In this document: positions 8,878 to 50,252 of the stretch, piece by piece
Layout of the letters: each line of letters begins with the position of its first letter
Numbering within the stretch: position 1 is the first letter of the stretch
Assembly: GCA_026023565.1 (NCBI GenBank)
Contig: JAPETS010000073.1
Coordinates: forward strand, 1-63,498
Length of the DNA: 63,498 nt
Direction: 5' to 3'
Source of the DNA: Cirrosporium novae-zelandiae
Lineage: Eukaryota
Notes under the pieces: model-generated
The model's database searches: none
Told to the model about the DNA's origin: nothing
Seen by the model: the letters and a program-made list of their open reading frames with translations, nothing else
Position numbers and translations under genes: made by a program

Positions 8878-8932
<55 letters not shown>

Positions 8933-9440
8933 TAATAATTTTGATTATTACCACAATGATCTTAATGGTCAAAATAATAATAATTCTAATTATAATCCCA
9001 ACAATAATAATAATAACAATAATAATAACCAGAATAATTTTACCGTGTCTTCAGAAACAACAGATAATCAAAGAAAATATAAATCGAGTGATGCTGACAG
9101 GCTTAGCGCCAAAAGATCTAAAGAAAGAGAACAAGCGAGTGATATGAACTGGTTAGAGGTGGCAACTTCTGGACTAAAGAGGGAGATTTTGGATGATGTA
9201 GTCGCAAGGATGGAAATCACCAGAAAGATGAAAAAAGAAATGGCGACGAGCGAAAGGTACCCTATTCCCAAGTGTAGTGATGATTTATTAAATCTTAAGC
9301 CAAGGGAGAAATTGGTTATCTTAGAGCATTTACAGACATTTCATCGGAATTCTGTGTATTTACGGCATGTAGCGGATCAAAGAAACTTCTGACGTGGTTT
9401 AAAGCTAACGGATGAATTTATAGATGTATTAAAAAAATAA
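6680..9440 (+). CDS. nad4: NADH dehydrogenase subunit 4 with an apparent frameshift in a T14 run (6820-6833) and a ~430-aa in-frame C-terminal extension
   Basis: LGFDGLSLYF, WLLKAHVESP, KELIAYSSVCH, NFLGEF; core ends near 8135 but the frame stays open (TGA=Trp) to TAA at 9438-9440. Confidence 0.93.
8878..9032 (+). repeat. (AAT)n microsatellites encoding poly-Asn in the nad4 extension
   Basis: About 20 consecutive AAT/AAC codons plus shorter runs. Confidence 0.95.
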
Positions 9441-12618: not shown

Positions 12619-14252
12619 GCGAAGCCCTCAGTTTTAAGGATAAGGCAATAGATATTGGTTTTTATGTGCTATTGTTTTTAATATTAGGGGCTGCAATGAT
12701 TTTTCATATAGATGAGGTCCTCTTGCATATGATGCCGACAGGTAGCCAGAATGCTAAGAATCCAGGGGGTTCTACTACTCCATGGTATGATCCTAATTCA
12801 GAGACTAATTTTTCATGGTGTTATTCAAGGGAGTTTTATATAGGGGATTCTTTTTTTAATGATGGTTCTTCTACACCTGGGAATTTACCTGCTTCAGAAA
12901 ATTCTCTAGGGGATTCTACTAATCTAAGGAATTCTACTAATCCAAGGAATTTTGCTGTTCCGGGTAATTCTACTGCTCCAAGGAATTTTCTTACTTCAGG
13001 GTATTTTCCTACTTCAGGAAATTCACCTGTTCTAGGGAATTCTCCTATTTTAAGGTATTATCCTAATCCAATGAGTCCTACTACTCCAGGTAATTCTACT
13101 GTTCCAGGGAATTATATTCCTCAAAGGAATTCTCCTATTCTAAGAAATTTACCTAATTCAGGAAATTCTCCTACTCTAGAAAATTCTACTTTTTCAGGGT
13201 ATTATCCTAATCCTATGAATTCTACTGTTCCAGGTAATTCTACTGTTCCTGGGAATTATATTCCTCAAAGAAATTCTCCTATTCTAAGAAATTTACCTAA
13301 TTCAGGGTATTCTCCTACTCTAGGAAATTCTACTTTTTCAGGGTATAATACTAATCCTGGGAATTATATTCCTCAAAGAAATTCTCCTATTCTAAGAAAT
13401 TTACCTAATTCAGGGAATTCTCCTACTCTAGGAAATTCTACTTTTTCAGGGTATAATACTAATCCAGGTAATTATAATACTCAAAGGAATTCTCCTACTT
13501 TAGGGAATTCTACTATTCCAAGGTATAATAATAATCCAGGGTATTATCCTACTCAAATCAATTCTCCTACTCTAGGGAATTCTAGTCTTCCAAGGTATAA
13601 TACTAATCCTGGTAATTATAATATTCAAAGGAATTCTCCTACACTAGGGAATTCTGTTGTTCCAGGTAATTATACTAACCCTGGTAATTATACTACTCAA
13701 AGGAATTCTCCTACTCTAGGGAATTATGATGTTCCAAGATATAACACTAATCCAATGAATCCTACTATTCCTGGTAATTCTCCTACTCAAGGGAATTACA
13801 TTGCTCCTGGAAATTACCCTACACCAATGAATCCTAATATTCCAGGTAATTCTACTTCTCAAAGGAATTACACTTCACCAGAGTATATTTCTGCTCCATG
13901 GGATAATACTTTCCCAAGGACTTATATTACACCAGAGGAGTATAATCGAAGGTTAGTAGTGTCAGAATGAAAGCGTTCTATGCTTTATAATATTGGAGAG
14001 CGCTTAAGTATTATAAACGCAGAGGACGAAAAGAAGCCTTCATTCCCTGTTAGTACTTTAGGTGACACTCGTTTAGCCTTAAGTGACCAAGAAAAGGTAC
14101 TTGTAAAAGAACTTATGCTAAGAGAAAAAAAATATTTTGGCGGTGCAATTCGTCAATTAAATTCCGGACAAGGCGACAACTGACGTGTGGTTGTTAACAC
14201 TAAAAGATTACGGCAATTTTTAACAGAGCCTGCGCAAAATGTAGATAAGTAG
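12609..14252 (+). CDS. Orphan ORF (~547 aa): TM segment, N/S/P/T/G-rich repeats, C-terminal domain; overlaps the cob end in the -1 frame
   Basis: Track ORFs 12609..13970 and 13980..14183 join through TGA=Trp to TAG at 14250-14252; frame open from 12525; start uncertain. Confidence 0.75.
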
Positions 14253-14801: not shown

Positions 14802-15160
14802 TCATCCTTCTTTTTTGTTTTTTCTTGGTATGGAGCGCGCTATCCTCTCTTTGGGGGCCTAAAAAAAAAATCCTGACAATTAGGTCAGGAAGAATAAGAT
14901 GCTATTTTAGCTAGGATGTTACAAGAACAGGAGGAAGAGGAATTTATGACATGAAATCATATCCCTGCTTTAACACCCAAAGCAACAAAAGCCCGGCTGT
15001 TTTCTCTGCTGAGCGGTTTTTTATAAACACTAGGAGAAAACAAGGCGGGAGCTAGGAGGACAAACATAAAAACGACTCTGATGGCCCCCTTTTTTTTTTT
15101 TAATATAAAAGCCCCCAACCAAAGGTTGGGGGCTAGGGGGATATAGCAGGAGACGATTAG
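14802..15160 (+). pseudogene. Degraded tandem copy of the 15576..16217 ORF
   Basis: Matches ggagcgcgc, caggaagaa..gatgct..ttagctag..tgttacaaga and gcaggagacgattagtctttaaaaattgttgtc; has stops and GC insertions. Confidence 0.85.
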
Positions 15161-15328
15161 TCTTTAAAAATTGTTGTCTTTTTTTAAGTTATGGTTAGGT
15201 AATAATTTCTCTTTCTACTTTTCTTTTTTCTTGTTCTTTTAAAACAATCTACGTCCGAAAGCCGCTTTTCAGCATCTTAATGCCTGTATGGGGGTATTAG
15301 AAGATTTCGTTTAAACCGTTAATCTGCC

Positions 15329-15575: not shown

Positions 15576-16217
15576 ATGCTAATAATGAATATATTTAATG
15601 TTAGAACTCCCTTAGGTTTATCTTTTACATATTGTGGTAGAAAATTTTCAACATCATCTTCTTTACTTGGAAAAGGTAAGGAGCGCGCCATAGACAATCT
15701 TCCTTTAGAGGAATCGGAGTCTATTAAAAAAACTCCTGAACAATTAGCTCAGGAAGAACATGATGCTCTTTTAGCTAGATTGTTACAAGAGGAGGAGGAA
15801 GAGGCCTTTATGACACGAGACTATAACCCTGATTTAACACCCAAACCATTAAAATCTAACGAGTTAGAAGGTTTTTATGACGAACATAAAGACAACTCTG
15901 ATCTTTATAATATAGATGACAAGGGTAGATTAATTAATTTTCCTTCCAGGAATACTTTTAAAGATTCTTCTCCTACAGAAGAAGGATCTTCTTCTGCTGA
16001 AGGATCTTCTTCTGCAGCTAAAGGTTCTTCTAGCGAGGGATCTTCTTCTGCAGCTAAAGGTTCTTCTAGCGAGGGATCTTCTTCTGCTGAAGGATCTTCT
16101 TCTGCAGCTAAAGGTTCTTCTAGCGAGGGTTCTTCCCTTTCAAAAGAAAGATCGTTAATAGACGATTATGCTGATGTTTCGACAGAATTTCCCGATTATA
16201 CAGCAGGAGACGATTAG
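15576..16217 (+). CDS. Orphan ORF213: basic/hydroxylated N-terminus, SSSAAKGSSSEG repeats, acidic C-terminal motif
   Basis: Intact ATG..TAG; ends SLIDDYADVSTEFPDYTAGDD. Confidence 0.75.
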   Translation: MLIMNIFNVRTPLGLSFTYCGRKFSTSSSLLGKGKERAIDNLPLEESESIKKTPEQLAQEEHDALLARLLQEEEEEAFMTRDYNPDLTPKPLKSNELEGFYDEHKDNSDLYNIDDKGRLINFPSRNTFKDSSPTEEGSSSAEGSSSAAKGSSSEGSSSAAKGSSSEGSSSAEGSSSAAKGSSSEGSSLSKERSLIDDYADVSTEFPDYTAGDD

Positions 16218-16290
16218 TCTTTAAAAATTGTTGTCTTTTTTTTTTTAAGTTATGGTTAAGTAATAATTTCTCTTTCGAGCGAAGCACCCT

Positions 16291-16428
16291 TTCTTTTTTG
16301 ATTTTAACCCCAAAGACTAGAACATTCTTTTTGGATTTTATCCCCAAAGACTAGAACAATCTTTTTGGATTTTATCCCCAAATACTAGAACATTCGTTTT
16401 GGTTTTACTCCCCATATACTAGAACATC
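16291..16428 (+). repeat. 34-bp tandem repeat, 4 copies, upstream of cox2
   Basis: Unit ttctttttggattttatccccaaagactagaaca. Confidence 0.9.
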
Positions 16429-16520
16429 TTCTAATACTCATCTAACGGTTTTAAACAATTAAATACAGCTCCTTTAAGGTTTAAAGACTTAAAAAGTCCC
16501 TTTCTTCTATATAATTAATC

Positions 16521-19500
16521 ATGTCTCGAATATTAAATACCCTAGAATTTTGTGATGCTCCAAGGCCCTGAGGTTTGTATTTTCAAGATAGCGCGAGTCC
16601 TCAAATGGAAGGAGTAGTAGAATTACATAATAATACTTAATATTTTTGTGTATAAGAGCCAAACTCCGGGGACCCCCTAAAGCTCTAGTAACCAAAGTTG
16701 TAAAGGAAACTTTGTAACCGGCCTGGTTAATGACTCAGGGTATGGTAATATCACTAGAGATGATGGAAACTGAAATGGGATATCGCGGATCTAAATCAGA
16801 CTATTTGTCTGTAAAAGAGCAACGAGCAGATGGTTCTTCAGGTTCATGTTATAAAATAACATGAAACTGTAAGGTGTGCTCTAGACGCTAAGAAATTAGT
16901 TTTTGAGTTAAATAGATTTTATACTTTACATTTCTTCAATCCCAGTTTATTTTATTTCAGATCCCCCACCCGCTCCTCGGCATTACTGCTGAGGACTCGG
17001 GGGGGGCCCAAAAAATAAAGAAATTAGCTGCCTCCGGAGAAAAAGACATTGAAATCAAATGTAGAAAATAAGTAGTAGGATTGAAAAAAAAATCACAACT
17101 ACTTTAAATATTTTTATATTTATGCCATAAAAACGTGGGGAAATTTCTTGTTGTAGATTATCTCGGTTTAATACTGTTTTTTAGGAAGTATATATTAATT
17201 ATACTTGAAATATTTCAGGTACTTTTTTTTATAACTTTGTAAAGTATTAGACAAATATATGGAAAATATTAAGAATATTCAACTAAATCTTAAACTTAAT
17301 CCATGGTATGTTACTGGTTTTTCAGACGGGGAGGCTTGTTTTCATATAGCTATTGGTAAAAACATTAAATATAAAAATGGCTTTTATGTAAATCCGGGCT
17401 TTTCAATAGTTTTACACAAGAAGGATAAAATATTACTAGAAAAAATCCAAGCTTATTTTGGGGGAATAGGAACATTGAAAACAAATGAAAAATTTGTTGA
17501 ATTTAGAGTATTTTCTATTAAGGATTTAAAAGTAATTCTTGATCATTTTGATAATTATCCTCTTAATACTAAAAAACAAATTGATTATCTGTTTTTTAAA
17601 GAAACTTTAGAATTAATAAAAAATAAAGAACATTTAACAGTAGAGGGTTTAAAAAAAATTGTAAACACAAGAGCCTCTATGAATAAAGGTTTACCGGAAG
17701 CATTAAAAAAAGCTTTTCCTAATGCTATTCCTAATACAAAACCTTTAGTTACAACACCAAAGGCAATGGATCCAAACTGAGTAGCAGGGTTTACTGAAGG
17801 CGAAGGGTGTTTTTTTATAAAAACACACTTAAGAAATAAAAGACTTAGTATTCAATTAGGTTGTCAAATTACTCAACATAACAGGGATATTATTCTCTTA
17901 AAAAGTTTAAGGGATTTCTTTGATTGTGGTAGATTAGAGCCAGCAGGAGAGTTCTCTCAAAATTTTTTTGTAACTAAACTATCTGATATCACTGAGATTA
18001 TTATTCCTTTTTTTGAAAAATATCCTCTAATTGGATCTAAAGCTAAAGATTTTAAAGATTGAAACAAGATCTCTGAATTAATGACATCAAAGGCTCATCT
18101 TACTAAAGAAGGATGTGAACAAATTCTTCAATTAAAATTAAGAATGAATTCATCAAGAACTTTAGAAAAATAATAGTTTTTCACTCCCACTCCCTCATTT
18201 TTTTTTTTTATATTTAATGTAGATAAATCCCAGTAGTTGTATTTAAGCAACTTAACCTAAAAAAAAAGAACTGTGTTAACATCATGGGTAAAGTTACTCA
18301 AAATTAAAGTTATAATCTAAACTTGTTTTTATCTTTACAATGAACTGTTAACAATTTGTTTATCTTATTACAATTAACAGTAAATAAAGGTTTCGCTCCT
18401 CGTTTTTTTTCTAGTAATTTCGAATATTTAAATTACGCTAAAAAAAAAAGGGTTATGCAAGGGAGTCCGACTAAAACAACAAGGTTGAAACGTTAGTCAA
18501 TTTTCCCCGAAGCCTGTAGATAAAATAAGACGGTAGAGTCGAATAATATAATGTTTTATTTAGTAATAATACTCTTTTCAGTCTCTTGAATACTTTTCTC
18601 TATAATTAGGAATTATAACCAAGAAAAGAATAAAATTTCACACAAGTATTTAAACCATGGTAAACAAAATGTGCCTACTCGAAAGTATTCTAATTTTAAA
18701 AGTAGCCCCTCAAATTATATAATATCTAACACTATACGTACTTATTCTACTTTACCTGAAAAAGAAAGTATCCCGGTTAAAGTCTATGAAGATGCTTATT
18801 CTATGAAAAAAGAAATTTTAAAGGAAAACATAGGCAAATCAGGGATTTATATGTGAACCAACAAACTTACAGGCGATATATACGTAGGACAATCATCTGA
18901 TCTCTCCAAAAGATTTAGAAAATATTTTACTGTTAGCTATATAAATAGTAAGAAAGGATTAAGAATCTCTAGAGTCTTAATAAAATACGGATATTCCAAT
19001 TTTTCTTTAACTATTCTAGAATATTGTAATATATCTAATTTACTTGAAAGAGAACAATATTATTTTGATAAATTAAAACCGCAGTACAATATATTAAAAA
19101 TAGCAGGTAGCTCTCTAGGTTATAAATCTTCGCCTGAAACTAGAGCTAAGATTAGTAAAGCTTTAAAAGGAATTTACATTGGAGAGAAATCTGCTCTTTT
19201 TGGTCGTTCACATATAGAAGAAACTAAGATAACAATGAGTTTAAAAAAAGCAGGTGAAAATAATCCTTTGTTTGGAAAAACTCACAGTGAAGAAACTAAA
19301 GATCTAATGAGACAAAAAGCTTTAGGTAGAAAACATTCTGATGAAACTAAATTAAAAATGAGCACAACACACGGAAATCCTGTAAACATATATGAGAAAT
19401 GTTCATCAGAAGGGTTTAAATTAATAGGTAGTTTTGTTTCAGCTAGAAGAGCTGCACTATTCTTAGGTATTAGTGGTAGTACTTTTATAAGATATATGAA

Positions 19501-20334
19501 TTCAGGGGCAATATATAAAAACAAATATAAATTTTCTTCTAAATAGTAGAAGAATATCTTAGAAAAACTACGAGTAAAATTTCACTATATGCTGGAAACT
19601 TCTAAAACCTGAGATACTATAATATAGTTTATATTATCAGTGAAAATTCTACAGGATGTAACAATGAACAATCAGCAGGAAACCAACGCATATTTATATG
19701 TTCTAGTGGGATCCTCAGAGACTACACGTGAAACAACCAGTTGTTAAATTTTCCTTCCCGTATACAGGAATCAAAAACAAAACGAGAGGTTGAAGATATA
19801 GTCCGTGAAACGACATTAATAGAATTAATTTGAACTATTACACCTGCATTAATTTTAATATTAATAGCCTTTCCATCTTTTAAACTTTTATATTTAATGG
19901 ATGAAGTTAGTGATCCTTCAATGGCAATTTTAGCAGAGGGTCACCAATGATATTGATCTTACCAGTATCCTGATTTTTTAAACAACGATGAAGAATTTAT
20001 TGAATATGATTCATATCTAGTTCCGGAAAGCGATTTAGCTGATGGTGCGTTAAGGATGTTAGAAGTCGATAATAGAGTTATAGTACCTGAGCTAACTCAT
20101 GTAAGATTTATATTAACAGCTGCAGATGTAATTCATAGTTACGCCTTACCTTCTTTAGGTATTAAGTCTGATGCTTATCCAGGAAGACTTAACCAAGCTT
20201 CTGTCTTTATTAATAGAGAGGGTGTATTCTACGGTCAATGCAGCGAGATATGCGGAATTCTACACAGTTCTATGCCAATTGTAGTAGAATCGGTATCTAT
20301 AGAAAAATTCCTTCTCTGATTAAATGAACAGTAA
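16521..20334 (+). CDS. cox2: Cytochrome c oxidase subunit 2; exons 16521-16628, 18542-18661, 19813-20334
   Basis: [37 protein letters not shown]; CuA motif [12 protein letters not shown]. Confidence 0.96.
16629..18541 (+). mobile_element. Group I intron (IC2-like), cox2 intron 1
   Basis: Exon ends in T, intron ends in G; core ggatatcgcggatcta, gagcaacgag, taaggtgtgctctag. Confidence 0.88.
17259..18173 (+). CDS. Double-motif LAGLIDADG homing endonuclease
   Basis: [13 protein letters not shown] and [12 protein letters not shown]. Confidence 0.93.
18662..19546 (+). CDS. GIY-YIG homing endonuclease in frame with cox2 exon 2
   Basis: [25 protein letters not shown]3-like repeats GKTHSEETK. Confidence 0.92.
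18662..19812 (+). mobile_element. Group I intron, cox2 intron 2
   Basis: Core atgctggaaac, aatcagcagg, tcagagactacacg, gaagatatagtcc; ends in G. Confidence 0.9.
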
Positions 20335-20732
20335 TGCATTTATTAAAAAAAAAAGGTTTAACGCACTTGGTCCCGCTTATAATAATCCAAGGTTTTTATT
20401 AGGGTCCCTACTTGCTGGCAGAAACTACTCTAATGTAGTCGAAATCCCTGAAAGATTAGCTTTAAACCACATGAATAAAAAGTAGTAGTATGTTTCTATC
20501 GTGCTGTACCAGAGTTTGAACTTTCTCCCGAAAAGGCCTTTAAAGCAGTAGCTCCGCTACTAAAAGCAAAAAGCTTGTTTTTCAGTCTCTGATCCGTATA
20601 TATTTGCGAACGTGGGAGAGGAATATTTGTTTATTAAAGCCCATGTACTACTTTTTATTAGTGTCTAAACTATCTAAGGTTGCATTCCTGAACTTCGTAG
20701 TACTCCGTAGAGAATTATTAGTTTGTTCGGTT

Positions 20733-20834
20733 TGTTCTGAAACCTGTGGAATCTTACATAGTTCTATGCCTATCGTTGTTGAGTCTGTTTCAATCGAGAA
20801 GTTTTTATCTTTATTAGCGGATCAAGAGGTATAA
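20733..20834 (+). pseudogene. Displaced cox2 3' end
   Basis: [33 protein letters not shown], synonymously diverged from cox2. Confidence 0.92.
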
Positions 20835-21229
20835 GTTATAGTAAAAGCTGTTATATATCTATATCTAAGCCTAAATATGGATATATTTCTTTGAGTTCTT
20901 CTTGTTTGTTAACCCTAAATTTATTTTCGGTGCGCGAAATGATTAGAGGTCCTCGTATATTTTTTACTTATACTGGTGGTAGAGCAAAACACGTAGATGT
21001 CGCCCCACGGCGCCCTGCAGAAAAACCAGTATTACCTAGCGTATATAAATCTGAAGCTTTGGCTTTACACTAGCCCGTCACCCCCCCCCTACACTCCTTT
21101 TTTATTATAACGTTTAACTATATTGCTCTATGTATAATCACATTATACTTTCTAAATCCTGTAAAACTTTATCTTTGATAAGATAGAAATGCATAATTTA
21201 GCATTAAAATATCTTTTTTTTTACAAAAT

Positions 21230-21376
21230 ATGCCACAATTAGTACCCTATTACTTTATAAACCAAGTTACATGTATTTATATCTTTCTAGCTTTTACAAT
21301 ATATATATTATCTAAATATTCCCTACCCCGATTTTTTCGATTGTTCTCTTTTCGGTTTCTTATGGGGCGAATTTAA
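21230..21376 (+). CDS. atp8: ATP synthase subunit 8
   Basis: 48 aa, MPQLVPYYFINQ...LSKYSLPRF. Confidence 0.95.
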   Translation: MPQLVPYYFINQVTCIYIFLAFTIYILSKYSLPRFFRLFSFRFLMGRI

Positions 21377-21664
21377 ACAAAAACTGAAAAACTTCTACAA
21401 GTTTCTATCTAATAGGATAGTAGTTTTTAAACAAAAGCTGAAAAACTTCTACAAGTTTCTATCTAATAGGATAGGAGTATTTAAACAAAAGCTGAAAAAC
21501 TTCTACAAGTTTCTATCTAATAGGATAGGAGTATTTAAACAAAAGCTGAAAAACTTCTACAAGTTTCTATCTAATAGGATAGGAGTATTTAAACAAAAAC
21601 TGAAAAACTTCTACAAGTTTCTATCTAATAGGATAGGAGTATTTAAACAAAAACTGAAAAACTT
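21372..21664 (+). repeat. 54-bp tandem repeat, about 5.4 copies (FKQKLKNFYKFLSNRIGV)
   Basis: tttaaacaaaagctgaaaaacttctacaagtttctatctaataggataggagta. Confidence 0.95.
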
Positions 21665-23546
21665 AGACAAATATCTAACTAATAAGCTAAAACATTGTAT
21701 ATGTCTTATTTGGGATTGTATACCTTCTTTTTTTATTCCTCGTTTACTTCCTTTTTTTTCTTGTCTACTGCGTAATATAAATACTGTAAAAGTTATATTA
21801 TTTATAGTGTTCTCTTTATATATGTGATATTGCTTTTTATATATAAAACCCACTCTATTTTTTTTCGTTGCTAAATCTTGAGTTAAGCTTTCAGAATATG
21901 TTGTTAATGCGGGTTGACAAGATTTTTTTGACTTTGACCATCCGGATTGGACAACAGGGAGTACACCAGGGAGTCCTAATAGTCCTACTCCTCCTAATAA
22001 TCCTACTCCTCCTAATAACAATTATCCTGTATTTGATCAAAACAATGATCAAAATGATCAATCTCAATTATACGGTGGTCAAAACAATCAGTTAAATAAT
22101 CAACACAATCCGTTAAATAATCCAAACAATAATCTGATTAATAATACGGACAATGCTCAAGACAATCAATCTCAATTAGATGGTGGTCAAAACTATCAGT
22201 TAAGTCAATCCCAACCGTTTAATTCAAACAATAATCAGTTTAATAATCAAAACAATGCTCAATACTATCCTTCTCAAATAAACGGTAGTCCAAACAATCG
22301 ATTAAGTCAAAACCAGCCGTTTATTTCAAACAATAATCAGTTTAATAATCAAAACAATGCTCAATATTATCCTCCTCAAAGAAACGGTAGTCCAAACAAT
22401 CGATTAAGTCAATTCCAACCGTTTATTTTTTCAGACAATAATCCGTTTTATCATCAAAATAATGCTCAATACTATCCGTCTCAAATAAACGGTAGTCCAA
22501 ACAATCAATTAAGTCAATCCCAACCGTTTATTTCAAACAATAATCCGTTTAATAATCAAAGCAATGCTCAATACTATCCTTCTCAAATAAACGGTAGTCC
22601 AAACAATCAATTAAGTCAAACCCAACCGTTTATTTCAAACAATAATCCGTTTAATAATCAAAACAATGCTCAATACTATCCTTCTCAAATAAACGGTAGT
22701 CCAAACAATCAATTAAGTCAATCCCAACCGTTTATTTCAAACAATAATCCGTTTAATAATCAAAACAATGCTCAATACTATCCGTCTCAAATAAACGGTA
22801 GTCCAAACAATCAATTAAGTCAATCCCAACCGTTTGATTCAAACAATAATCCGTTTAATAATCAAAACAATAATCCGTTAAACAACTCAAACAATTATCA
22901 AGCCAATAATCAAACCCAAATATACGATGGTCAAAATAATCAGTTAAATAATCAAGACAATCTATTTAATAATCAAAACAATAATCCGTTTAATAATCCA
23001 AACAATTATCAAGCTAATGATCAACCCCAATTAAACGATGGTCAAAATAATCAAAACAATAATCCGTTTAATAATCCAAACAATTATCAAGCTAATGATC
23101 AACCCCAATTAAACGAGGGTCAAAATAATCAGTTAAATGACCCTGTATCTCCGGTCCCTCAATATATACCGGAGGAAACTTTGCGAGCTATTAGTGGTGA
23201 AAGGACTCCTATAGAAAACTGAATATTCGAAAAAAGAGTTGGTAAAAAAAAAGTACCTTATTGTACTAATACTTTTCACGATGAACCCGTAAAAATATAC
23301 GTCAAAGAAGGGTGATGAGATACCTATCATCACACGGAACCAGCTCATCCGCTGCCACCTTGCAATGAAGTTATATATAAAGAAAGAGGGAATGGTTATG
23401 TTGTTTATGATCCACATACTCTTAATAAGAAAGAAGTCCCATTGTTTGTAAAACGAAACAACGGGGGGGAATATATACCTCTAAATGCTACAGTAAAACA
23501 ATCATCTTTACCAATTGTATTAAGACCAGGTAAAAGTAGTAAATAA
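21372..23546 (+). CDS. Orphan ORF (~725 codons, not in the ORF track): 18-aa repeats, hydrophobic segment, Q/N/Y/P-rich 34-aa repeats, C-terminal domain
   Basis: No TAA/TAG seen in this frame from 21291 to TAA at 23544-23546; first in-frame ATG at 21822; overlaps the atp8 stop in the +1 frame. Confidence 0.72.
22200..22872 (+). repeat. ~102-bp tandem repeat, about 6.5 copies (LSQSQPFISNNNPFNNQNNAQYYPSQINGSPNNQ)
   Basis: Recurrent caatactatccttctcaaataaacggtagtccaaacaat. Confidence 0.93.
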
Positions 23547-23797
23547 CTAATTTATTTCTTCTATATTAAGCCCCTTTAAAAAAAAAAGGGGCTTTATAAA
23601 TTTTGCTTTTCTTAGCAGAAAAAGAGTGCCCCCCCCCACCTTAAATTCGGTTCCTGAACTTCGTAGGCTGCTTTGCTCCCCCCCTTGCAGCAAGGGGGGG
23701 GGGGGGCGAAGCAGAATGCATGCTGATCCTCTACTACGGAGTCGAATGGGCACAACCAAAATAAAAGACACTCTTAAATAAAAAAAAAACAAAAAAA

Positions 23798-24067
23798 ATG
23801 AATTTATCTCTAATACTTTTTTTAATAGGAATCTTAGGGTTTGTATTAAATAGAAAAAATATAATTTTAATGCTTATTTCAATAGAAATAATGTTATTAG
23901 CTATTACATTTTTAATATTGGTAAGTTCACTTAGTTTTGATGATATATTAGGCCAAACATATGCTATATATATTCTAGCAATAGCTGGTGCCGAATCAGC
24001 TATAGGTTTAGGTATTCTAGTGGCTTTTTATAGATTAAGAGGAAGTATAACAATAGAATATAAATAA
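23798..24067 (+). CDS. nad4L: NADH dehydrogenase subunit 4L
   Basis: 89 aa, [18 protein letters not shown] overlap with nad5. Confidence 0.98.
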
Positions 24068-27000
24068 TGTATTTAACTTTAATTATTTTACCATTATTAG
24101 GATCAATAGTTTCCGGTTTTTTTGGAAGAAAAGTCGGAGTTAGCGGAGCACAATTAATTACAAGTAGTTCTGTAATTATAACAACATTTTTGGCAACTGT
24201 TGCTTTTTTCGAAGTAGGTTTAAATAACATACCTGTCTCAATTCAATTGTTTAGATGAGTTGATTCAGAGTCACTTAATGTCTTATGAGGTTTTCATTTC
24301 GATTCCTTAACAGTATCTATGTTAATACCTGTATTAATAGTTTCTTCTTTAGTACATATATATTCAATAGGATACATGGCTTCAGATCCTCACAATCAAA
24401 GATTTTTTAGTTACTTAAGTTTATTCACTTGATTTATGGTTATTCTTGTAACAGCTAACAATTATTTACTTATGTTTGTAGGTTGAGAAGGTGAACCAAA
24501 ACGCCTTAAATGGTTAAGCATGCCTAATAGCTTTAAATATTTAAGATATAAAACTAAAAAGAGTTGCGTTGTTTTCTCTCCGAGAAAACAAGCGCCAAAA
24601 TTTAAAAGATCTTTTTTTTCAAATGAATTAAAACCAGATCAAAGAATAGGAGCTCACAGTTTAGATATAATATCTATAATAATAGGTTCTTTATTTGGTA
24701 ATACATATATGGAAAAAAGAAAAAATGGTACAAGAATAGTATTTGAATTGTGTAATGATAATGTAGAGTATTTAATGTGATTACATAAAATTTTAGCCTT
24801 AAAAGGTTATTGTAGTTCTAAAAAGCCCAAATTATCTGTTAAGATAGCTAAAGACAATAAAGTCTTGTTTAAGTATTCTCTTAAAAGTTATACTTTTTCA
24901 AGCTTTAATTGATTATATGAGATCTATTACAAAGATAACATAAAAATAATTCCTCGTAACCTTGATAACTTTTTAACACCATTAGCTTTAGTTGTATGGT
25001 TTCTAAATGATGGTATAAATCTAGACAAAGAGAGTAAAAAGGTTTTCTTGTATAGAATAAGTAGTAATGATTTTGAATATTTATCTTGTCTTCTAAAAAA
25101 GAAATATAATCTAAATACTATAATTTCTTTCAAGGGCGAGGCTGAAAATAAAGGTAGTGCTATTAGTATAAAAAGTACTTCATATATTGCCTTTTCTAAA
25201 ATAGTAAAACCACATCTTTTACCTTCATTACATTACAAATTAAATAATGGACATAATAGATTATGCTTATCTAACAATACTTTTACTTACTCTACTCGGG
25301 CCCCCCTCCTCCTCAGCAGTAATGCTGAGGGGAGGGGGGATAATGTAAATGGTAAATTAAAGTTTAATACTAGACAGTATTCAATATATAAAGAAAACTC
25401 TAATGTAAAGTATACAGCTACATATAAAAAAGAATACTCTTTGAGTATAACTCAAAAAGAAGCTCTTATAGGAATTATTCTGGGAGATGGGTTTTTAGAA
25501 AGAAATAAAGCTACACATAATACAAGACTACGTGTAGAACAATCTTACCCTGAAAAAGAAGAATATTTAAAGAGTTTATTTACATTACTAGGGCCTTTAA
25601 CAGCTATGACTCCTGTTATTCTAACAAGAAAAGCAGATAAACGAACAGGTACAATAACTAAATCTTTGTATTTTAGAACATTAGCTATGCCTTGTTTAAA
25701 TTATTATTATGAATTGTTTTATAAGGAAAAAGTAAAGCATATTCCAAAAAACTTGGATGAATTATTAACTGCAAGAGGGTTAGCTTACTGAATAATGGAT
25801 GACGGAGGTAAATCAGTTTATAATCAAACTATTATTCATACTAGATCTTTTACTAAAGAAGATGTTATACTTGTTCAATACGTATTAAAAAAAAACTTTG
25901 GTTTAATAACTAGACTAGAAGAAAAGAAAAAAGACCAATGGGTAGTATTTATACCAGTTAAACAAGAAACAAAGCTTAAAGATATAGTAGGACCATTTAT
26001 GCATAAAAGTATGCTATATAAAGTATAGTAAATTAAGTGTATAAAAGCAAAACTAAAAAAAAAAAAATAAAGCTATTAGGATAATTTGCCATAGTTAATG
26101 ATTTATCGTTTATATTTAACCAATCAAAATAGTTTCTCATTTAATTAATTTTTTTTATGGTTATTAACTATAACTATAAATAGTTAATTAAAATAAAATG
26201 GGTCGCTGCTCTTTAGCAGCTACGTATTCCTTCGGCGAGAAATAAAGAATACTCTTCACGCTTGCTGTCCCCCCCATTCCCCAGCCCCCACTCGGCTCAA
26301 AGAGTGAGTGGGTGGTTTTCTCCTTGCCCCTTAAAATAAAAAAAGGGGCTGGAGAAAACTCATGGGGGGGAATTGGGGGGGGAGAAAGAGAATAAATATA
26401 GATTAATTTTTTTATGTATTATATATAAAAGGTTTAATCAATCATTAGCGACATCATTGAAAACGATCAACTAAATTAAGTTAATTTAAAGATCGTCGGT
26501 TATATTTTGAATCGCGATCGACTAGTACAATGGTGGGTGCCTGAGATGGTGCTTAATGCATAGTCAGAATATATATATTCTAAGCCCCTTTTTTTTTTGA
26601 AAAAAAGGGGCTTAGAGTATACCAGGGCCTTGAGTAAAACCTTCTAGGTATTAAAGGTACAGGAAATAAAAATTTAACTTTTAGTGTATAATATTTTATC
26701 TAGCCCGGGCCCCCCGCTACCTCAGCAGTAATGCTGAGGAGCGGGGGGGATATAAAAAAAAGGGCTTAGATACACTTATATTTTTATTTTTATATTTGGT
26801 TGGAGTTTGTTCATACCTTTTAATAAGTTTTTGATTTACTAGAATAGCTGCAAATCAAAGTTCCATCTCTGCTTTTTTAACAAATAGAGTGGGTGATTGC
26901 TTTTTAACTATAGGTATGTTTGCTATATTATGATCAGTTGGTAATTTAGATTATTCTACTGTTTTTTCATTAGCTCCATATGTTAATGAAAATCTTGTTA

Positions 27001-30000
27001 CTATTATAGGTATTTGCTTATTAATTGGTGCTATGGCTAAAAGTTCTCAAGTTGGATTACATGTCTGATTACCGATGGCGATGGAAGGTCCTACACCTGT
27101 TTCTGCATTAATACACGCCGCTACGATGGTAACAGCGGGTGTATATTTATTAATGCGTTCTTCACCTTTAATAGAATATAGTTCAACTGTATTAATTCTA
27201 TGTTTATGAATAGGAGCTATTACTACAGTATTTAGTTCTCTTATTGGTTTATTCCAACAAGATATTAAAAAAGTTATAGCTTATTCTACGATGAGCCAAT
27301 TAGGTATGATGGTTATTGCAGTAGGTTTATCATCATATAATATTGCTTTATTTCATTTAGTTAATCATGCATTTTGACCCTTTGTAAGTGCATGTAAAAC
27401 TCGACTATTTGCTGGAAAGTCCCGTAAATATCTTAAGACGGGAGAATCAGCAGGGAAGTACATCAGAGAACTTATTTTTAATCTATATTAGATATTTCTT
27501 ACGTACTCCTTCAACGATCAGACGCCGAGAATATTGTGGAGATGGGATATCAGAAAGATATATCTCTAGAATGTTATGATATGATCTAGACAAGTAAGTA
27601 ATTATTTGACTATTCGTATGCTTTGGTTCTTACCTTACTGTTTTTTTCATCGTGGATGTTGTAAGCCCCTTTTTTTTAAAAAAAAGGGGCTTTGAGCACT
27701 TCGTTGTTTATTTAATTTGTCTGCTTTACTTATATGTAGCGAAGATTAGGAGGTTACTTAAACCTATGTTAAATACACCTTTCTACCCTTTAGCTAGTAA
27801 TTCTAATAGGCTGGGCCCTTCCTTACGTGTAGTAAAAGGTTTAAACTCAAAACCAGGTCTTGTTTATACTAGATCGATTTCGCATAGATTGTATTCCACC
27901 TTGCGTAATAACGAGGATCATATCATATCTAATGGATTAAAGATACATTCTTCTTTTGCTTCAATATTAAAAAATGAATCAACAGGTGGTAAACTGCTTA
28001 CTAAATTAATATACCATATCCACGGACAAAATGTGTATAACATCCCTCTGTTTTTAACACCATTAGGGGTGAAAGCATCTCATGATTTAATAGAGATGAT
28101 AAACCTTTTACCTAAAGACTCTGGATCTGAGTTTAGGGGGGATAATATATTACTAGAATACTTGGATAAGCATCTTGAACCTGTTTTCAGATATAACATG
28201 GAATCATACTTGACAACCATTAGTCCCGTTAAAAAGTATAACATCCCTCTTCTTAACCAAAAAGTAGAAGATGGGGACTGTTCAGGAATTTACTGTTTTA
28301 TCCATACTACAGGTAAATACGGTATAGGTTCTGCTTTATCATGCCGTGACCGCCTGGTTGATCATATGAATAGTTTTAATGGCCACCGTCAAAGAACTTT
28401 CCTACATGACTGAATAATAGCCAATGGCGGCATTGAGTCTGTTAAATGGGCACCTGTTATAACATTTGATAATATTGTGCAAGAGTGATATAACAACAAT
28501 TACGCTTGTCCTTTAAGTCTTGGTGGAACTAAAATCTTACAGTGTTTTGGACAATATCCTGTTAGACTTTTAGAACAATGTCTGTACACTCAATTTAAAC
28601 CTTTTTTAAGCATGTTCGATGAACAACGCTCTATTATTTTTTTTAATATTACCTTTAAACCTGAAGAAATGTCATTAGGCTTGGATCATCTTCATGTGTT
28701 TCAAGCTTGAAGTGATAAGAAAAGAACAAAGCTAATAGCTGAGTCTCACTCTTTAAATTCTTTAGCAGATATATTAGGGTTAAGTATAGGTACGATTAAA
28801 AATAATATGAACTGGCATAAAGGCCTCTGTATTACAGATCGTGACACAGCTAAAAAGACTACTATCTATTTAGGTGAAAAAGGTGCACCGATTAGAACTC
28901 AAGCGATTGCTTCACAAAAATACCCTAAAGAGTTATATCCTAAAGTTGAGCTTATCAATAGAACACTTTCTGATTTAATTCCTGGGAGAATCCATGTTAT
29001 AAACATAGAGACGTTAGAGGATTTTGGTAACTACGCTAATCAGCGTGAACTTTGAATAAAATTAAACCCTAACTCTTTACAAGATTTTAACAGTCTAACT
29101 ACTTTAGCTAAACAGCGGATCTTTCTTGACAATAGGATAGGAAGATATCTTAATGTAGCCAAGCCTGGTGGCTTAACCACAGAGTTAGGTAACTTCTATT
29201 TTTGTAGACATCCGGATTTTTTACCTAATAATACTAAAACCGCTTCAGGGTTCTTTGGTGTAAACATAAAAACAGGTGTTGCTGAATATTTTGAAAATAA
29301 TTCTCAACCTAAAGACGATCGTCTTACTGTTAGAACACATAGAAAGAACAACACTGTCTCTAAAAGTGGGTTTAGATACATAGATAAAGACATATTTATT
29401 AAATATTTCCCTCTAGCTATACCTACGAAAGGGTCTACATATACTCTAAATAAAGAGCAACTAAGTAATCTGCCTGACAATAAATCAACATCTTAACAAT
29501 TATGTCCTTAAGATACGCAAGCTTTATATTTGCACGCATAAGAGACGGGGCTGTATTCTCTTCTCCTCCTCGGATCCTTCTCACAGCTGCCAGGCTCTTC
29601 TGCAAGATATTAGCAAGCATTTAAGGAGCGAGTAAAAGAAAGCTTGGGAACCTTTTAAGCTGATTACAAATAGTGGACGTTTACAAAGGGTTACTATTCT
29701 TAGGGGCAGGTGCGGTAATTCATGCAGTTGGTGATAACCAAGATTTTAGAAAATATGGTGGGTTAAGAGCATATTTACCTTTAACATATTCTGTTATGTT
29801 AATAGCTTCTCTTAGTTTAGTAGCTTTCCCTTTTATGACAGGGTTTTATTCTAAAGATCTAATATTAGAGTCTTCATATGGACAATTTTTTTTTTCTGGT
29901 ACTGTTGTATATTTTATAGCTACTATAGGTGCCATGTTTACTACCTTGTACTCAGTTAAAGTTTTATATTTAACGTTCTTAACTAACCCTAACGGACCTT

Positions 30001-31439
30001 TAGGTAGTTATAAAGCTTTACCTAACAATTTAAGGCCTTATCATGATTTATATTGAGATATAGTAAACCTTGTAATCAAATCTAAAGAATACCAGAAGGT
30101 TAGAGATGAAGCATTAGATAGAAGCAAGAGTATTACCAATTATGCTTCTGAAAAAATGGCAGAAGAATATAAAAAAATTCGTGATGTACGTAATGCGAAA
30201 GTTGCGCATGAAGGTGATATTTTTATGAGTTTACCTTTAATTATTTTAGCTGTTTTCTCTATTTTCTTTGGTTATATTACTAAAGATATATTTATAGGGT
30301 TAGGTTCAGATTTTTTCGCGGATAATGGTTTATTTATTCACCCTTCACATGAAATTACCCTTGATACTGAGTTTGCGGTCCCTACATTCTTTAAATTATT
30401 GCCTTTAATGCTTACTGTATCACTAAGTGCACTAGCTATAGTTTTCTCAGAATTTTTACCTAAAGTACTTATAGATTTCAAGTTTTCAAGGTTTGGTTAT
30501 AATATTTTTGGTTTCTTTAATCAGCGTTTCTTAATTGAACTTTTTTACAACAAGTATATTACTAACGTTATTTTAAATTTAGGTGGTCAAACTACTAAAG
30601 TTATTGATAAAGGTTCTGTTGAATTATTAGGACCTTTTGGTTTAGAAATAGGTTTGGTTAAATTAAGTAAAAGTATAGCTAGTTTAGAGACTGGTGTTAT
30701 TACATCTTATGCTTTATATATATTAATAGGCTTAATCTTTTATATCTTTTATTCTAATATATTTAATAATAGTTTATTATTATTAGTATTATTTGCTTTA
30801 TTTAGTTTAATAAAAGTAGCTAAAGACAAAAAACCTAGTAATTTAGTTTATATAAGAAAAGATATAGACTATATTACTCTTATTCTTAATAGTTTTAAAG
30901 AACTATATACTATTTATACGCCTACAATTGATTTACCTTTTTCTTTGCCTTCATGGTTATCAAATATGTATTCGCCTATGTGTGGTATAGTAATAGAAGC
31001 AGGGGTGAGACTTACGGTCCATCTCTTATCTACTGGGGCAGATATATCTTTTCTAGAAAATCGGTTAGAGGTTAACATAGATGATATAAATTCTTTAATA
31101 GGTGAAATTTATGATTCTATGCCTGAAATTCAGAATATATTTAGTGTTTATAATATAGGTATAGATGAACTTCGCCTCATTGATGTAAATAATGGTTTTG
31201 CTAGTCTTCCCACTCAGGTAAACCTGAGCCCTAATCAAATAGAAGGCCTTGAAGCTTATATCGAAGTATATAATAGATTAAGGGAAATAAATGGTGATAT
31301 TGATCATTTAGTCGAACAGGGTCACATTTTAGAGGACAGATTAGCAGGTCTGGTTAATGATTATACATCTAGGTTGCATGATGTTTTGCTTAGATTACAG
31401 AATGCACGTAATGCTTGATTAAGTTTAACAAATCCTTAA
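24067..31439 (+). CDS. nad5: NADH dehydrogenase subunit 5; exons 24067-24492, 26799-27372, 29680-31439; internal insertion and ~200-aa C-terminal extension
   Basis: [43 protein letters not shown]; stop TAA at 31437-31439. Confidence 0.95.
24493..26028 (+). CDS. Exon-fused ORF with two tandem LAGLIDADG (type 2-like) endonuclease units
   Basis: [11 protein letters not shown]...WFLNDG, then [11 protein letters not shown]...YWIMDDG; an in-frame GC hairpin lies near 25300. Confidence 0.85.
24493..26798 (+). mobile_element. Group I intron after nad5 nt 426
   Basis: Exon ends ggt, intron ends tttg; core-like gcgatcgact and aatgcatagtc. Confidence 0.87.
27373..29679 (+). mobile_element. Group I intron after nad5 nt 1000
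   Basis: Core ttgctggaaa, aatcagcagg, tcaacgatcagacg, tgatatgatcta; ends in G. Confidence 0.88.
27766..29496 (+). CDS. Large divergent GIY-YIG-like endonuclease (~576 aa)
   Basis: [29 protein letters not shown]; open with TGA=Trp. Confidence 0.75.
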
Positions 31440-31835
31440 TCTTTCTAATTAGAATTGTTGAGTATGTGCGTCGTCTAAGTCTAAACCTCTTGGTAGCTTA
31501 TATCCCAAATACTGTTTGTACTCCAGAAAAAGGATAGGCGAGCAATAGTCATTCTTTTATATCTCTAGTTTAATCTACCGGTTGTTTTCTTGTTTTTTTA
31601 TATCCCCCCCGCTCCTCAGCATTACTGCTGAGGAGCGGGGGGGGGGCCAAAAAAAAAAAACAAGAAAACAACGCACTACTCCGTAGTGAGGGGGATATCC
31701 AATATTTTTTATCAGAAGCCCCTTTTTTTTAACCCCCTGCTCTGCGTTGCTGAAGGGGCCAAAAAAAAAGGGCTTATACTACCTTAGTCTATTTAATATT
31801 TTTATTGATTTCAATTATTTAAGTATTCTAAACGA

Positions 31836-32609
31836 ATGATTTACTCTTTATTTATAGAAATACCTAGTCCACTAGATCAGTTCCAAATTAGAGATTTATT
31901 TAGTATAAACGCGCCTATCTTAGCTAATGCACATATATCTCTAACTAATATAGGTTTATATTTAAGCGTCGCTACTCTAGTTATCTTTTTCGTTAATTTA
32001 TTAGCTACAAATTTTAATAAATTAGTTACAAACAGATGATCTTTAAGTCAAGAATCTACATATGCTACTATACATAGTATAGTTATAAACCAAATAAACA
32101 ACTCCAAAGGACAATACTACTTCCCTTTAATATATGCATTATTTCTAACAATTTTAGTTAGTAATTTATTGGGGATGATTCCTTATAGTTTTGCTATTAC
32201 AAGTCATTTTATATTAACATTTTCTCTTAGTTTTACTGTAGTTTTTGGTGCAACTATATTAGGTTTCCAAAAGCACGGTCTAGAATTCTTCTCTCTTCTT
32301 GTACCGGCTGGTTGTCCATTGGGATTATTACCTCTTTTAGTTTTAATTGAGACTATAAGTTATACTGCTCGTAATGTTTCTCTTGGTCTTCGTCTTGCTG
32401 CGAATGTAGTTGCTGGCCACCTGTTATTATCTATCTTAAGTGGTTTTACTTTTAGTATTTTATTATCTAGTGCTTTTGTTTTGGGGTTAATACCTCTAGC
32501 TTTTATAATCGCTTTTTCTGCTTTGGAGTTAGGTATAGCTTTTATCCAAGCTCAAGTCTTCGTTATATTAACCGCTTCTTATATCAAGGATGGTTTAGAT
32601 TTACATTAG
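31836..32609 (+). CDS. atp6: ATP synthase subunit 6 (a)
   Basis: SPLDQFQI, SLGLRLAANVVAGH, IQAQVF. Confidence 0.98.
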
Positions 32610-33039
32610 TGAGAATAAAAACGACGATGTATAATTGTATGTCTAGAAACGTAAAAGAGCTTAAATTTGTATCTCCAGCCCCCAGGTTTTATTTTGGGGC
32701 TGGTGCTACTGAAGGAGCAGGCTCCTTTCCCCCATCTAAAAAAAAAAGAGAAAACTACCCCCTAACCATCCCACCTGCAAATCCTTCTATATACAAAAAA
32801 CTAGAAAAAAAAACAGGGGAGTAGGGAACAGGCGTGGTATCTTTATGATTAACCCAGCCCCCACTCTTCGAGTGGGGGCTAGTGTAGGTCTTTGTTCGGC
32901 CCCCTAGCCCCCAACCTTTGGTTGGGGGCTTTTATAAGCCCCCTTGTTTTCTCCAGCCCCTTTTTTTATTTTAAGGGGCAAGGAGAAAACAGTCCAAGCC
33001 CCCACTCGTAGAGTGGGGGCTTTGGGGGCTAGGGGGATA

Positions 33040-33122
33040 TTGAAACAAATAAACCCGAAAAATATTACCCTAATGCAGACACATGTAAACTAGATATTTT
33101 GGATGGTAATAAAGGAAAATCT
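33040..33122 (+). pseudogene. N-terminal remnant of a GIY-YIG endonuclease
   Basis: KPEKYYPNADTCKLDILDGNKGKS resembles the segment before GIY in the cox2 intron ORF. Confidence 0.6.
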
Positions 33123-33197
33123 TTGCTTCGCCCCCCTCCCTTTTTTTTTGATTATATCCCCCCTGCTCTGCATCGCTGAAGGGGGCCCTAGGGGGAT

Positions 33198-33299
33198 ATA
33201 GCATTCTCTGGTTTGGAAATTGGAATTGCTTTTATACAGGCACAGGTGTATGTAATTTTATCTTGCAGCTATATAAAAGATGGTTTGGATTTATATTAA
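33198..33299 (+). pseudogene. Displaced atp6 3' end
   Basis: IAFSGLEIGIAFIQAQVYVILSCSYIKDGLDLY*. Confidence 0.92.
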
Positions 33300-33443
33300 C
33301 AGTTATGCAGCTCTTGTTTTTTTTTTAGCTACTCCTGTTCCCCCATGAGTTTTCTCCAGCCCCTTTTTTTATTTTAAGGGGCAAGGAGAAAACTACCCAC
33401 GGCGAAGCATCCTGCTTTCGCCTGCTCTTTTTTGTTTCGACGA

Positions 33444-33685
33444 TCCCCCCCGCTCCTCAGCTTTATTGCTGAGGAGCGGGGGGGGGGGCCCAAAAAAAAC
33501 ACAAAAAAACAACACACTACTCCGTAGTGAGGGGGATATCCAATATTTTTTATCAGAAGCCCTTTTTTTTATCCCCCTGCTCTGCGTTGCTGAAGGGGCA
33601 AGCCCCCAAAAGAAAATTTTGGGGGCTAGGGGCTTATACCACCTTAGTCTCTTTAATATTTTTATTGATTTCAATTATTTAAGTA
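33444..33685 (+). repeat. Duplicate of the atp6 upstream region (31602-31825)
   Basis: Shared cactactccgtagtgagggggatatccaatatttt... and accttagtc..tttaatatttttattgatttcaattatttaagta. Confidence 0.9.
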
Positions 33686-33697
33686 AAACTTTGGATT

Positions 33698-34378
33698 ATG
33701 TTTAAATTTAATAACATATTGGACAAAACAAAGGTATTTCACCAAAATAAGGCAAAATGTGTATATAATCATTCGTTTAGATCTTTTTCTATGTCGTTTT
33801 CTTTAAAAGTAGATGGTGGCCTTTTGGATAGGATAGATAAACTTTTAAAGGAAAATAAGAATTTCGTTAAAAATTCTAGGTCTGACTTTCTTTTTAAAGA
33901 ACGTGAAATAATGGATCAAAAAGTTGATGATGCTAATCAAACTATGAAGGATTGAGTTAGTAAATGCTCAGAACATGCTGATAACAACAAGATGGAGCAA
34001 ATTAGGGAGACGAATGAGAAACTTATCTCTTCTATCTTTGAGAAAATAGGTAGTTTAGATAAAAACGATCCCTCTTTTGCTGAGAAAAGTTATAAATTAT
34101 ATATTCTAGCTAAAAACGCTAGAAACAAACACTTAGATCAATTAGAAGCTCTAACTTCTGAGGCTGTTAAAGATAACAGCAAACCTTGAGAACTTGATGT
34201 ATTTTTTAAATTAAGGTTAGAAATCCTTAATAAAAGGAAAGAAATTCTTGATAAAGATAAAGAATTATATTCCAAGGAAGTTGATTTTATTAAACAAAAT
34301 CCACAACCTTCATCTTTAGTTGAAGACTTTGCAGATCCTAATTTGGAGATGCCTGGATATATTGATCCAGAGGATTAA
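33698..34378 (+). CDS. Orphan ORF226, helical and charged, with acidic C-terminal motif
   Basis: Track fragments join via TGA=Trp; ends SLVEDFADPNLEMPGYIDPED*. Confidence 0.78.
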
Positions 34379-49315: not shown

Positions 49316-49875
49316 TCTCTCTGTGGTCTTTATTAATTCTGATGAATCAGACAAAAACCCATCTTCTGATGAATCAGAAAAAAACCAGCTTCTGATGAAT
49401 CAGTTTTTAAAAAACCAACTATTCCAAATAAATGTAAAGCTGATCAATTAGACTCAGTTGAGGTTGATAAGCAAAATGAGCTAACCCGAAAAAAGGAATT
49501 GAAAGAGCTAAAAGAATGGTATGGTGATGAAATCAATGAAGTTAAGAAAGCTGATGCATAAATATATGCCTGATAACTCTAGGCCGCAGAATTCTCATTT
49601 AAATAGTCTTAAAGTATTATATCCAGATGCTTTTAAGGATAATCCAAGCGATGATTCTAGAGCTATGCAACAAATTAAAGATCAACTAGCCCCAGCATCC
49701 TTTTTTTTTGCTTCTTGTTTTTATTAAGCAAAACACTAAACCCCCAAAGAAAATTTGGGGGCTAGGGGCTAAGGGGAAAGAGGTGAGGTACATAAACGAA
49801 TAGAACAATTTGATTTTCAAGATTCTAGAGACGTAGTTGGTGATTCCATAACCTAGTTTTTTGGATGATCTATAA
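49316..49875 (+). pseudogene. Degenerate acidic orphan ORF overlapping the cox3 stop in the +1 frame
   Basis: SDESDKNPSSDESEK...NSHLNSLKVLYPDAFKD...EQFDFQDSRDVVGDS..FLDDL*, with frameshifts and a GC insertion. Confidence 0.6.
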
Positions 49876-50252
49876 TAAATATTTCTTTTACATTTTACGG
49901 CTATTTGATATAATACCGGCTCCTCTGCAGGATCCCCTACTAATTTTGTTTAGATCCCTTCCATTTTCATCTCCTGGTGTGCAGCTCTTTCTGCGGAGCG
50001 GTTTTTTTTAGTAGGAGGATCACAACAAAATAAATCTTTTTTTGTTAGCTTCTCAAATGGAAGGAGTAGCAGGGATGTTATTTGTTGATAATAGCGTTTA
50101 TATAATAGTTCTATTGTATAATATTTATATAAACATTAATATAAAGGCTATAAGGTTTTATTTCTTTTGAATAGTATTCATAAAGAGCTTTCTAAGCTTA
50201 TTGGTATTATTACAAGAATAAATTTTAGTCTTTTTGTATCTTGTATTATTAA

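Follow-up and report, generated by a model that had tools for sequence, protein, structure and literature searches.

The window analysed here, 63,498 nucleotides from Cirrosporium novae-zelandiae (assembly GCA_026023565.1, contig JAPETS010000073.1), is one entire contig of a 31-Mb fungal assembly. Read with genetic code 4, it holds most of a mitogenome of the filamentous-ascomycete type, including nad1, nad4, cob, cox2, nad5 and atp6, together with rns, nad6, cox3, rnl, rps3 and 21 tRNAs; cox1, nad2 and nad3 lie on a second mitochondrial contig. The window also encodes two open reading frames (ORFs), ORF213 and ORF226, which have different bodies and end in a similar acidic peptide of 21 residues, the tail. 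Two subtypes of this tail dominate, ending P-S-Y-x-D-P-E-D (PED) and P-D-Y-x-G-G-D-D (GDD), and the C. novae-zelandiae mitogenome holds one of each. The parts of the two genes are as follows.

15576..16217, plus strand: ORF213, tail-bearing, GDD subtype, with a low-complexity body for which no body homologue was found
15576..15668, plus strand: basic leader of ORF213, residues 1-31, ending in a site of the R-10 type (MPP then Oct1), R22
15762..15797, plus strand: D-x-x-L-A-x-x-L-Q-x-E-E stretch of ORF213, present in 1 of 166 bodies, which we take to resemble the ubiquitin-binding MIU motif
15963..16135, plus strand: Ser/Gly-rich 18-nt tandem repeats, the pre-tail linker of ORF213 (family D11)
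16152..16217, plus strand: 21-residue tail of ORF213 and TAG stop, GDD subtype
33698..34378, plus strand: ORF226, tail-bearing, PED subtype, of a helical-bundle superfamily, with two TGA-Trp codons
33698..33808, plus strand: basic leader of ORF226, residues 1-37, ending in a site of the R-10 type, R28, and disordered in the model
33815..34297, plus strand: five-helix body of ORF226, residues 40-200, with a predicted local distance difference test (pLDDT) score mostly of 65-91 and no specific fold match
34313..34378, plus strand: 21-residue tail of ORF226 and TAA stop, PED subtype

A sequence-only reading of this DNA had described the two ORFs as free-standing, with a shared acidic C-terminal signature on differing bodies. 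Both were found intact at these coordinates, with the C-terminal ends as described, and these ends are the two most acidic among 650 stop-to-stop frames. BLASTP aligns only the last 21 residues, of which 9 are identical; when one tail was shuffled 200,000 times, 9 identities were reached twice, and among the window's 435 pairings of ORF ends this one comes top. Both tails fit the pattern S-L-[LIV]-[DE]-D-[YF]-A-[DN]-x-x-x-E-x-P-x-Y, with the stop 4-6 residues later. This motif occurs exactly twice in the organism's own 31-Mb genome, which carries no nuclear copy of either ORF. On the two mitochondrial contigs, ORF213 and ORF226 alone score against a profile of the tail, and the pseudo-ORF linked to cox3, previously described as ending in a looser acidic tail, does not match it. 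Searches with the whole proteins yielded no relatives and no Pfam match above cut-off for either ORF; relatives surfaced through the tail only.

To collect these relatives, a degenerate DNA pattern was used (L-x-[DE]-D-[YF]-A-[DN]-x3-E-x-P-x-Y) that specifies nothing after the Tyr, not even a stop. It retrieved 21 metagenome stretches, and in 18 of them, two being copies on one contig, a stop lies exactly 5 residues past the Tyr. Of the other three, one tail is truncated where its contig ends, one belongs to a pseudogene whose motif contains stops, and one is a GC-rich chance match. Most AT-rich loci have fungal mitochondrial genes or tRNAs nearby. On one 35-kb contig (L011/L023) a tail ORF region is present twice in opposite orientation, as an inverted duplication or an assembly artefact. 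Once the pseudogene, cut, chance and duplicate rows are left out, 16 loci plus ORF213 and ORF226 give 18 distinct DNA tails. Ser1, Asp21 and the stop, all absent from the pattern, are invariant in 18/18 with synonymous change, codons of both the TCN and AGY type are used for Ser10, and the ratio of nonsynonymous to synonymous variation (pN/pS) is 0.31, a value biased downwards. The tail is conserved at the peptide level.

At the protein level, two libraries were searched with the tail profile: the first gave 61 matching proteins and the second 289 clusters (50% identity), 150 of them listed, and 184 distinct proteins were retrieved. The protein ends 5 residues past the Tyr in 165, 6 in 10 and 4 in 5, so that 180 of 184 stop 4-6 residues beyond it, the rest being two truncated sequences, one that runs on and one false match. 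Seven of the 21 positions are near-invariant. The sequence-only reading had named beforehand a lack of enrichment at ORF termini elsewhere as the observation that would count against it. The enrichment was found in both searches (18/21 and 180/184), and with 289 clusters, terminal placement and varied bodies the proposed modular family sharing a terminal peptide is borne out. Outside fungi, the pattern had 0 occurrences in viral contigs, the tails 0 matches among phages and plasmids, and the profile 0 matches among PDB sequences. Prokaryote genomes gave two matches, one by chance and one on a fungal cox1-intron contig in a bacterial bin. This contig (L038), with cox1 exons, nad4L and a tail ORF, is fungal mitochondrial DNA in a contaminated record.

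The proteins that carry the tail are diverse. Stripped of tail, linker and leader, 161 bodies fell into 75 BLAST groups, which two rounds of profile merging, free of decoy links, reduced to 49 and a third round to 48. The largest group is a helical-bundle superfamily (71/161) that includes ORF226, the second a Cys/His zinc-finger family (25/161), and the 46 others comprise small groups and 38 singletons, ORF213 among them. Profile-profile comparison found no similarity between the helical and zinc-finger groups. Judged by these comparisons, the tail is partly common by descent and partly joined to unrelated folds. The earlier description of both genes as orphans holds for ORF213 and fails for ORF226, because the latter has body homologues (five close relatives, the best at 39% with E 3e-30) and belongs to the helical superfamily.

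Structural models add detail to the two main groups. The ORF226 model, with a mean pLDDT of 69, is disordered to residue 39 and then forms five helices up to residue 200. The best match in a fold search with its body (Z 9.0, root-mean-square deviation (rmsd) 2.6, 102 aligned residues) is in the range of generic bundles, and Foldseek returned no match for the model. The zinc-finger body models well, and its fold ranking weakly places C1/RING-type domains first (Z 3.6, rmsd 2.5, 46 aligned); in Pfam, 6 of 18 members have B-box/RING-like scores below the cut-off. At E 1e-4, Pfam matched 0 of 111 tail-family members, endonuclease domains included, and the ESM Atlas held nothing usable for ORF213 or one zinc-finger member. 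Bodies are mostly 150-315 residues long, and a disordered linker precedes the tail.

At the other end of the proteins, the leaders carry a putative processing site. The R-10 motif of MPP plus Oct1 is given as R-X/(F/L/I)-X-X-(S/T/G)-X4/ in the available text of PMC7996597. As the earlier description of presequence-like leaders implied, R22-K-F-S-T-S of ORF213 and R28-S-F-S-M-S of ORF226 both fit R-X-(F/L/I)-X-X-(S/T/G), which predicts mature proteins starting at G32 and V38, respectively. Among 104 relatives that look full-length, 34 have a tighter motif, [RK]-x-F-[SH]-x-[TSG], in the first 70 residues (against 0.9 in shuffles) and 1 has it in residues 71-140; it also occurs in 6/18 ORFs read from DNA. 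At the site the net charge changes from basic to acidic. The disorder of the ORF226 model, which ends just past the predicted cut, was counted in favour of processing, and the accessible portion of PMC8847149 reports that fungal MPP cuts internal sites of composite precursors. The presequence-type site is real in the family as far as these comparisons reach, and cleavage at it is predicted. That the leader motif is general to intron ORFs was considered and is unsupported, a similar site upstream of the domain being present in 1 of 23 endonuclease ORFs.

Codon use and location tie these genes to the mitochondrion. Trp is encoded by TGA in 26 of 30 cases in tail ORFs and in 140 of 150 in core genes, a similarity which indicates that the tail proteins are made in the organelle and rules out cytosolic translation followed by re-import; ORF226 has two TGA-Trp codons and ORF213 lacks Trp. 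Tail ORFs are free-standing, fused in frame to or placed after fragments of cox1, nad5, nad2 and cob, or located inside cox1 introns. The cox1 intron before V-Y-A-M holds three different bodies at one site (L014, L020 and L038), another tail ORF (L018) is in frame with the cox1 exon at H-D-T/Y, and in C. novae-zelandiae itself endonuclease ORFs occupy or adjoin the same V-Y-A-M and H-D-T/Y sites. Some tail ORFs end 20-50 nt ahead of the cox1 3' splice site. The tail-bearing cox1 introns gave no score in Rfam; their sequence and terminal G point to group I.

Three further features touch the pair or its tail.

14863..15215, plus strand: decayed ORF213 duplicate, upstream of the gene, 84% over 129 nt, frameshifted and with stops
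49320-49880: acidic pseudo-ORF immediately following the cox3 stop, with a frameshift and a GC-rich palindrome that interrupts it
L011 oriented 646-750 and 2331-2435, and L024 oriented 896-1000: a second tail class, on three orphan ORFs with different bodies

All that is left in the decayed duplicate is the final few codons of the tail plus the 3' flank, and GC-rich palindromes interrupt it. The second conserved tail reads G-P-S-N-F-x-x-F-L-D-x-T and continues to the stop as an amphipathic or hydrophobic helix, and one of its ORFs has a motif like a bipartite nuclear localisation signal (NLS) ahead of a Gly/Ser linker. This tail suggests several tag classes, and the end of the cox3-linked pseudo-ORF may belong to another of them.

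Other features lie elsewhere in the mitogenome. The 3' ends of atp6 and cox2 recur as diverged duplicates at 33201-33299 and 20740-20834, downstream of the intact genes, and nad3 has a duplicate on contig C116; these would be typical scars of endonuclease-gene insertion. Long C-terminal extensions are found on nad4 and nad5, and ORF518 and ORF574 consist of tandem repeats rich in Asn and Pro and close with a short, unique domain at the C-terminus (extensions and repeat ORFs at 6837-9440, 12696-14252, 21822-23546 and 29796-31439); Pfam gave no match above cut-off for these extra parts. On the minus strand of C116 (1397-186; L033), the last cox1 exon likewise continues in frame for about 220 residues, which contain hydrophobic segments and Gly/Ser repeats and have a helical, charged end, a passenger extension like those of nad4 and nad5. 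A 576-residue nad5 intron ORF at 27766-29496, without a Pfam match, carries the site R-x-Y-S-T and a stretch, G-I-Y...Y-G-I-G-S-A, that resembles GIY-YIG, and is possibly a diverged endonuclease. A 54-nt tandem repeat follows the atp8-like frame directly, in six copies (21312-21743). Matches to group II intron domain V at 37826-37900 in rns and 58645-58721 in rnl adjoin LAGLIDADG ORFs (36658-37572 and 57620-58600), indicating group II introns with LAGLIDADG genes.

The explanation preferred here, to which about even odds are given, is that ORF213 and ORF226 belong to a family, widespread in the mitochondria of filamentous ascomycetes, of mobile, probably selfish accessory genes, whose proteins MPP and Oct1 set free and whose tail docks on one conserved host factor. 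As their sequences show, ORFs of this family use the mitochondrial code and are placed as free genes, as fusions to core-gene fragments, or within self-splicing cox1 introns at homing-endonuclease sites. Successive cuts by MPP and Oct1 at the R-10 site, as the motif implies, would detach the leader or core-gene piece, leaving an acidic, soluble protein whose N-terminus is stable. The sequences also show that the body is exchangeable and evolves fast, with the last 21 residues kept constant at the protein level and tied to the C-terminus. The tail would serve as a short linear docking motif for one conserved nuclear-encoded factor, such as a chaperone or translocase, which would deliver or protect any body attached to it, and the bodies may be effectors diversifying under genetic conflict.

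Several points weigh against this explanation. Many of the helical bodies are remotely homologous, and to that extent the common tail reflects simple descent and not module swapping; the third merging round ran without a decoy control. The R-10 motif is missing in about two-thirds of the full-length-looking relatives, some of them perhaps shortened by gene calling. The pN/pS value was lowered because the search pattern itself fixed several residues. The partner and the expression of the tail ORFs are inferred, and their probable selfishness is read from location alone.

A special case of docking would make the tail an export tag, by which the processed proteins leave the matrix as effectors in the cytosol or nucleus, possibly by mimicry of the Rieske protein and its handling by Mzm1 and Bcs1. 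This is possible though unlikely, and two likenesses bear on it, both of them post hoc and first noticed by eye. The first is to the classical bipartite NLS, whose consensus is KR-x(10-12)-K[KR]x[KR]. The pattern KR-x(8-15)-K[KR]x[KR], sought within 60 residues ahead of the tail in 76 body-group representatives, occurs in 10/76, against 1/152 other windows of the same proteins and 1/352 windows of other mitochondrial ORFs, the latter being an orphan ORF with the second conserved tail. Against shuffles the count is 9/76, compared with a mean of 0.23 and a maximum of 3 in 1000, and the spacer peaks at 11-14. The zinc-finger bodies, with C1/RING-type domains ranked first, albeit weakly, also suit effectors of this kind. 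The cases fall in only 5/48 merged groups, with 15/19 in one superfamily, the helical one, so that few origins are possible, and neither ORF213 nor ORF226 has the motif.

The second likeness concerns the host's own Rieske protein. Its last exon shares 9/21 ungapped identities with the ORF226 tail and holds A7, E12, P14, Y16, P19, E20 and D21 of the PED tail, seven residues that rank among the best conserved in this subtype. Per position, the second half of the tail matches with p = 1.7e-7, the first half being without a counterpart, and by estimate about 0.07 such matches are expected per mitochondrial proteome and 0.8 per whole proteome. The Rieske segment is a poor fit to the GDD subtype, reaches 1 bit against the full profile, and lies inside a folded domain, not at the extreme end. 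On this evidence the resemblance of the ORF226 tail to the Rieske C-terminus is borderline. The last 30 residues of Rip1, the yeast Rieske protein, are said to suffice for Mzm1 binding (in work by Cui et al. in 2012); Mzm1 was not identified among the LYR matches of the C. novae-zelandiae genome, where one Bcs1 homologue was found. Tail positions E12 and D21 align with yeast Rip1 E201 and D210, which face Bcs1 according to the available part of PMC12219900. The same text indicates that Bcs1 reads a folded surface and that single charge reversals are harmless, and the part of PMC7994207 at hand puts the capacity of the Bcs1 cavity at about 126 residues, fewer than most bodies contain. Additional Bcs1 homologues without an assigned role are present in moulds (PMC10672213, as far as its accessible text goes). 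Export in this manner also has no known route across the outer membrane. The broader proposal, that filamentous-ascomycete mitochondria possess a secreted-effector system of their own, with proteins made on mitoribosomes, trimmed by MPP and Oct1, exported by the tag (possibly through Rieske mimicry that borrows Mzm1 and Bcs1) and, for many of them, taken into the nucleus by the NLS ahead of the tag, is doubtful.

In another reading, the tail is a degron or anti-degron by which Lon, ClpXP or m-AAA would control how long unrelated and possibly toxic proteins last. A strictly terminal, portable peptide after a disordered linker is what such a signal would look like, but 21 positions, seven of them near-invariant, exceed the needs of known C-terminal degrons, acidic DD ends usually block ClpXP, and the adjoining basic motif is left unexplained, which makes this distinctly unlikely. 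It is very unlikely that the tail works from within the mitoribosome exit tunnel, as a nascent peptide stalling or tuning termination and coupling translation, for example, to splicing or downstream expression. The length of the tail fits the tunnel, the same Tyr-to-stop distance is kept in 165/184 proteins, and the ORFs that end shortly before the cox1 3' splice site are suitably placed; however, the stop is shifted by one residue in 15/184, both ORFs of the window are free-standing, and conserved folded bodies would be needless.

The sequence-only reading had itself proposed the passenger proteins of this genome (extensions of core genes, and ORFs rich in repeats) as possible partners of the tail. 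They do co-occur in the C. novae-zelandiae mitogenome, but none of the five passenger sequences (the nad4 and nad5 extensions, ORF518, ORF574 and ORF576) was matched in 19 tail-bearing loci, as judged from flanks of at most 6 kb, and a fast-changing partner would not keep the tail invariant across distant fungi; the partnership is thus highly improbable. Hardly any credence is left for a DNA or RNA element, such as a recombination site or processing signal, that happens to lie in frame: mobility and a common AT-rich context are in its favour, but free third positions, switches between Ser codon families, the use of both TAA and TAG, and the absence of any Rfam match at the ORF213 and ORF226 tails largely refute it.

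Comparison with known systems helps to place the docking explanation. In Helotiales mitogenomes, chimeric or unassigned ORFs such as ORF_01 of Phialocephala subalpina (PMC3434094) and the atp9-like ORF 0044 of Sclerotinia borealis (PMC4162613) resemble tail ORFs in that a core-gene fragment is fused in frame to unrelated sequence without an assigned function. The available text of these reports, compared by description, mentions no shared C-terminal motif, processing site or family, and their supplements may hold tail ORFs; the accessible part of PMC6140425 holds nothing relevant to tail ORFs. LAGLIDADG and GIY-YIG homing endonucleases share the cox1 intron niche and are in some cases in frame with the upstream exon, but tail ORFs lack LAGLIDADG, GIY-YIG and HNH domains, and the tail is absent from endonuclease ORFs, most of which also go without the leader motif. 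The plant cytoplasmic male sterility (CMS) ORFs T-urf13, orf79 and orf138 are mitochondrial chimeras built, like tail ORFs, on core-gene fragments, with fast turnover and plausible genetic conflict. CMS proteins are membrane toxins without a shared terminal tag, whereas tail proteins are acidic, mostly soluble and known from sequence alone. Polymorphic effectors, and proteins whose C-terminal tags are portable, such as the type IV and type VII secretion signals and the acidic tail of SSB, likewise join a variable body to a constant C-terminal peptide, but no sequence relation was found in the PDB, phages, plasmids or prokaryote genomes, and the cognate machine of the tail ORFs is putative. No description of the tail motif or of such a system was found in the open-access literature, the coverage of this search, with subscription papers lying outside it. 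The tail family appears unlike any named kind of system, its function being putative.

Fungal mitogenomes are full of unassigned ORFs, which are usually written off as debris. A tag kept constant across hundreds of diverged proteins suggests that many of them are real, selected genes that would plug into one conserved host factor, and the tail peptide offers a simple handle for finding that factor. Should the tail prove to be an export signal, mitochondria would send folded, genome-encoded effectors to the nucleus, for which there is no established precedent in fungi, and this would bear on mitochondrial inheritance and on conflict between mitochondrial and nuclear genomes.

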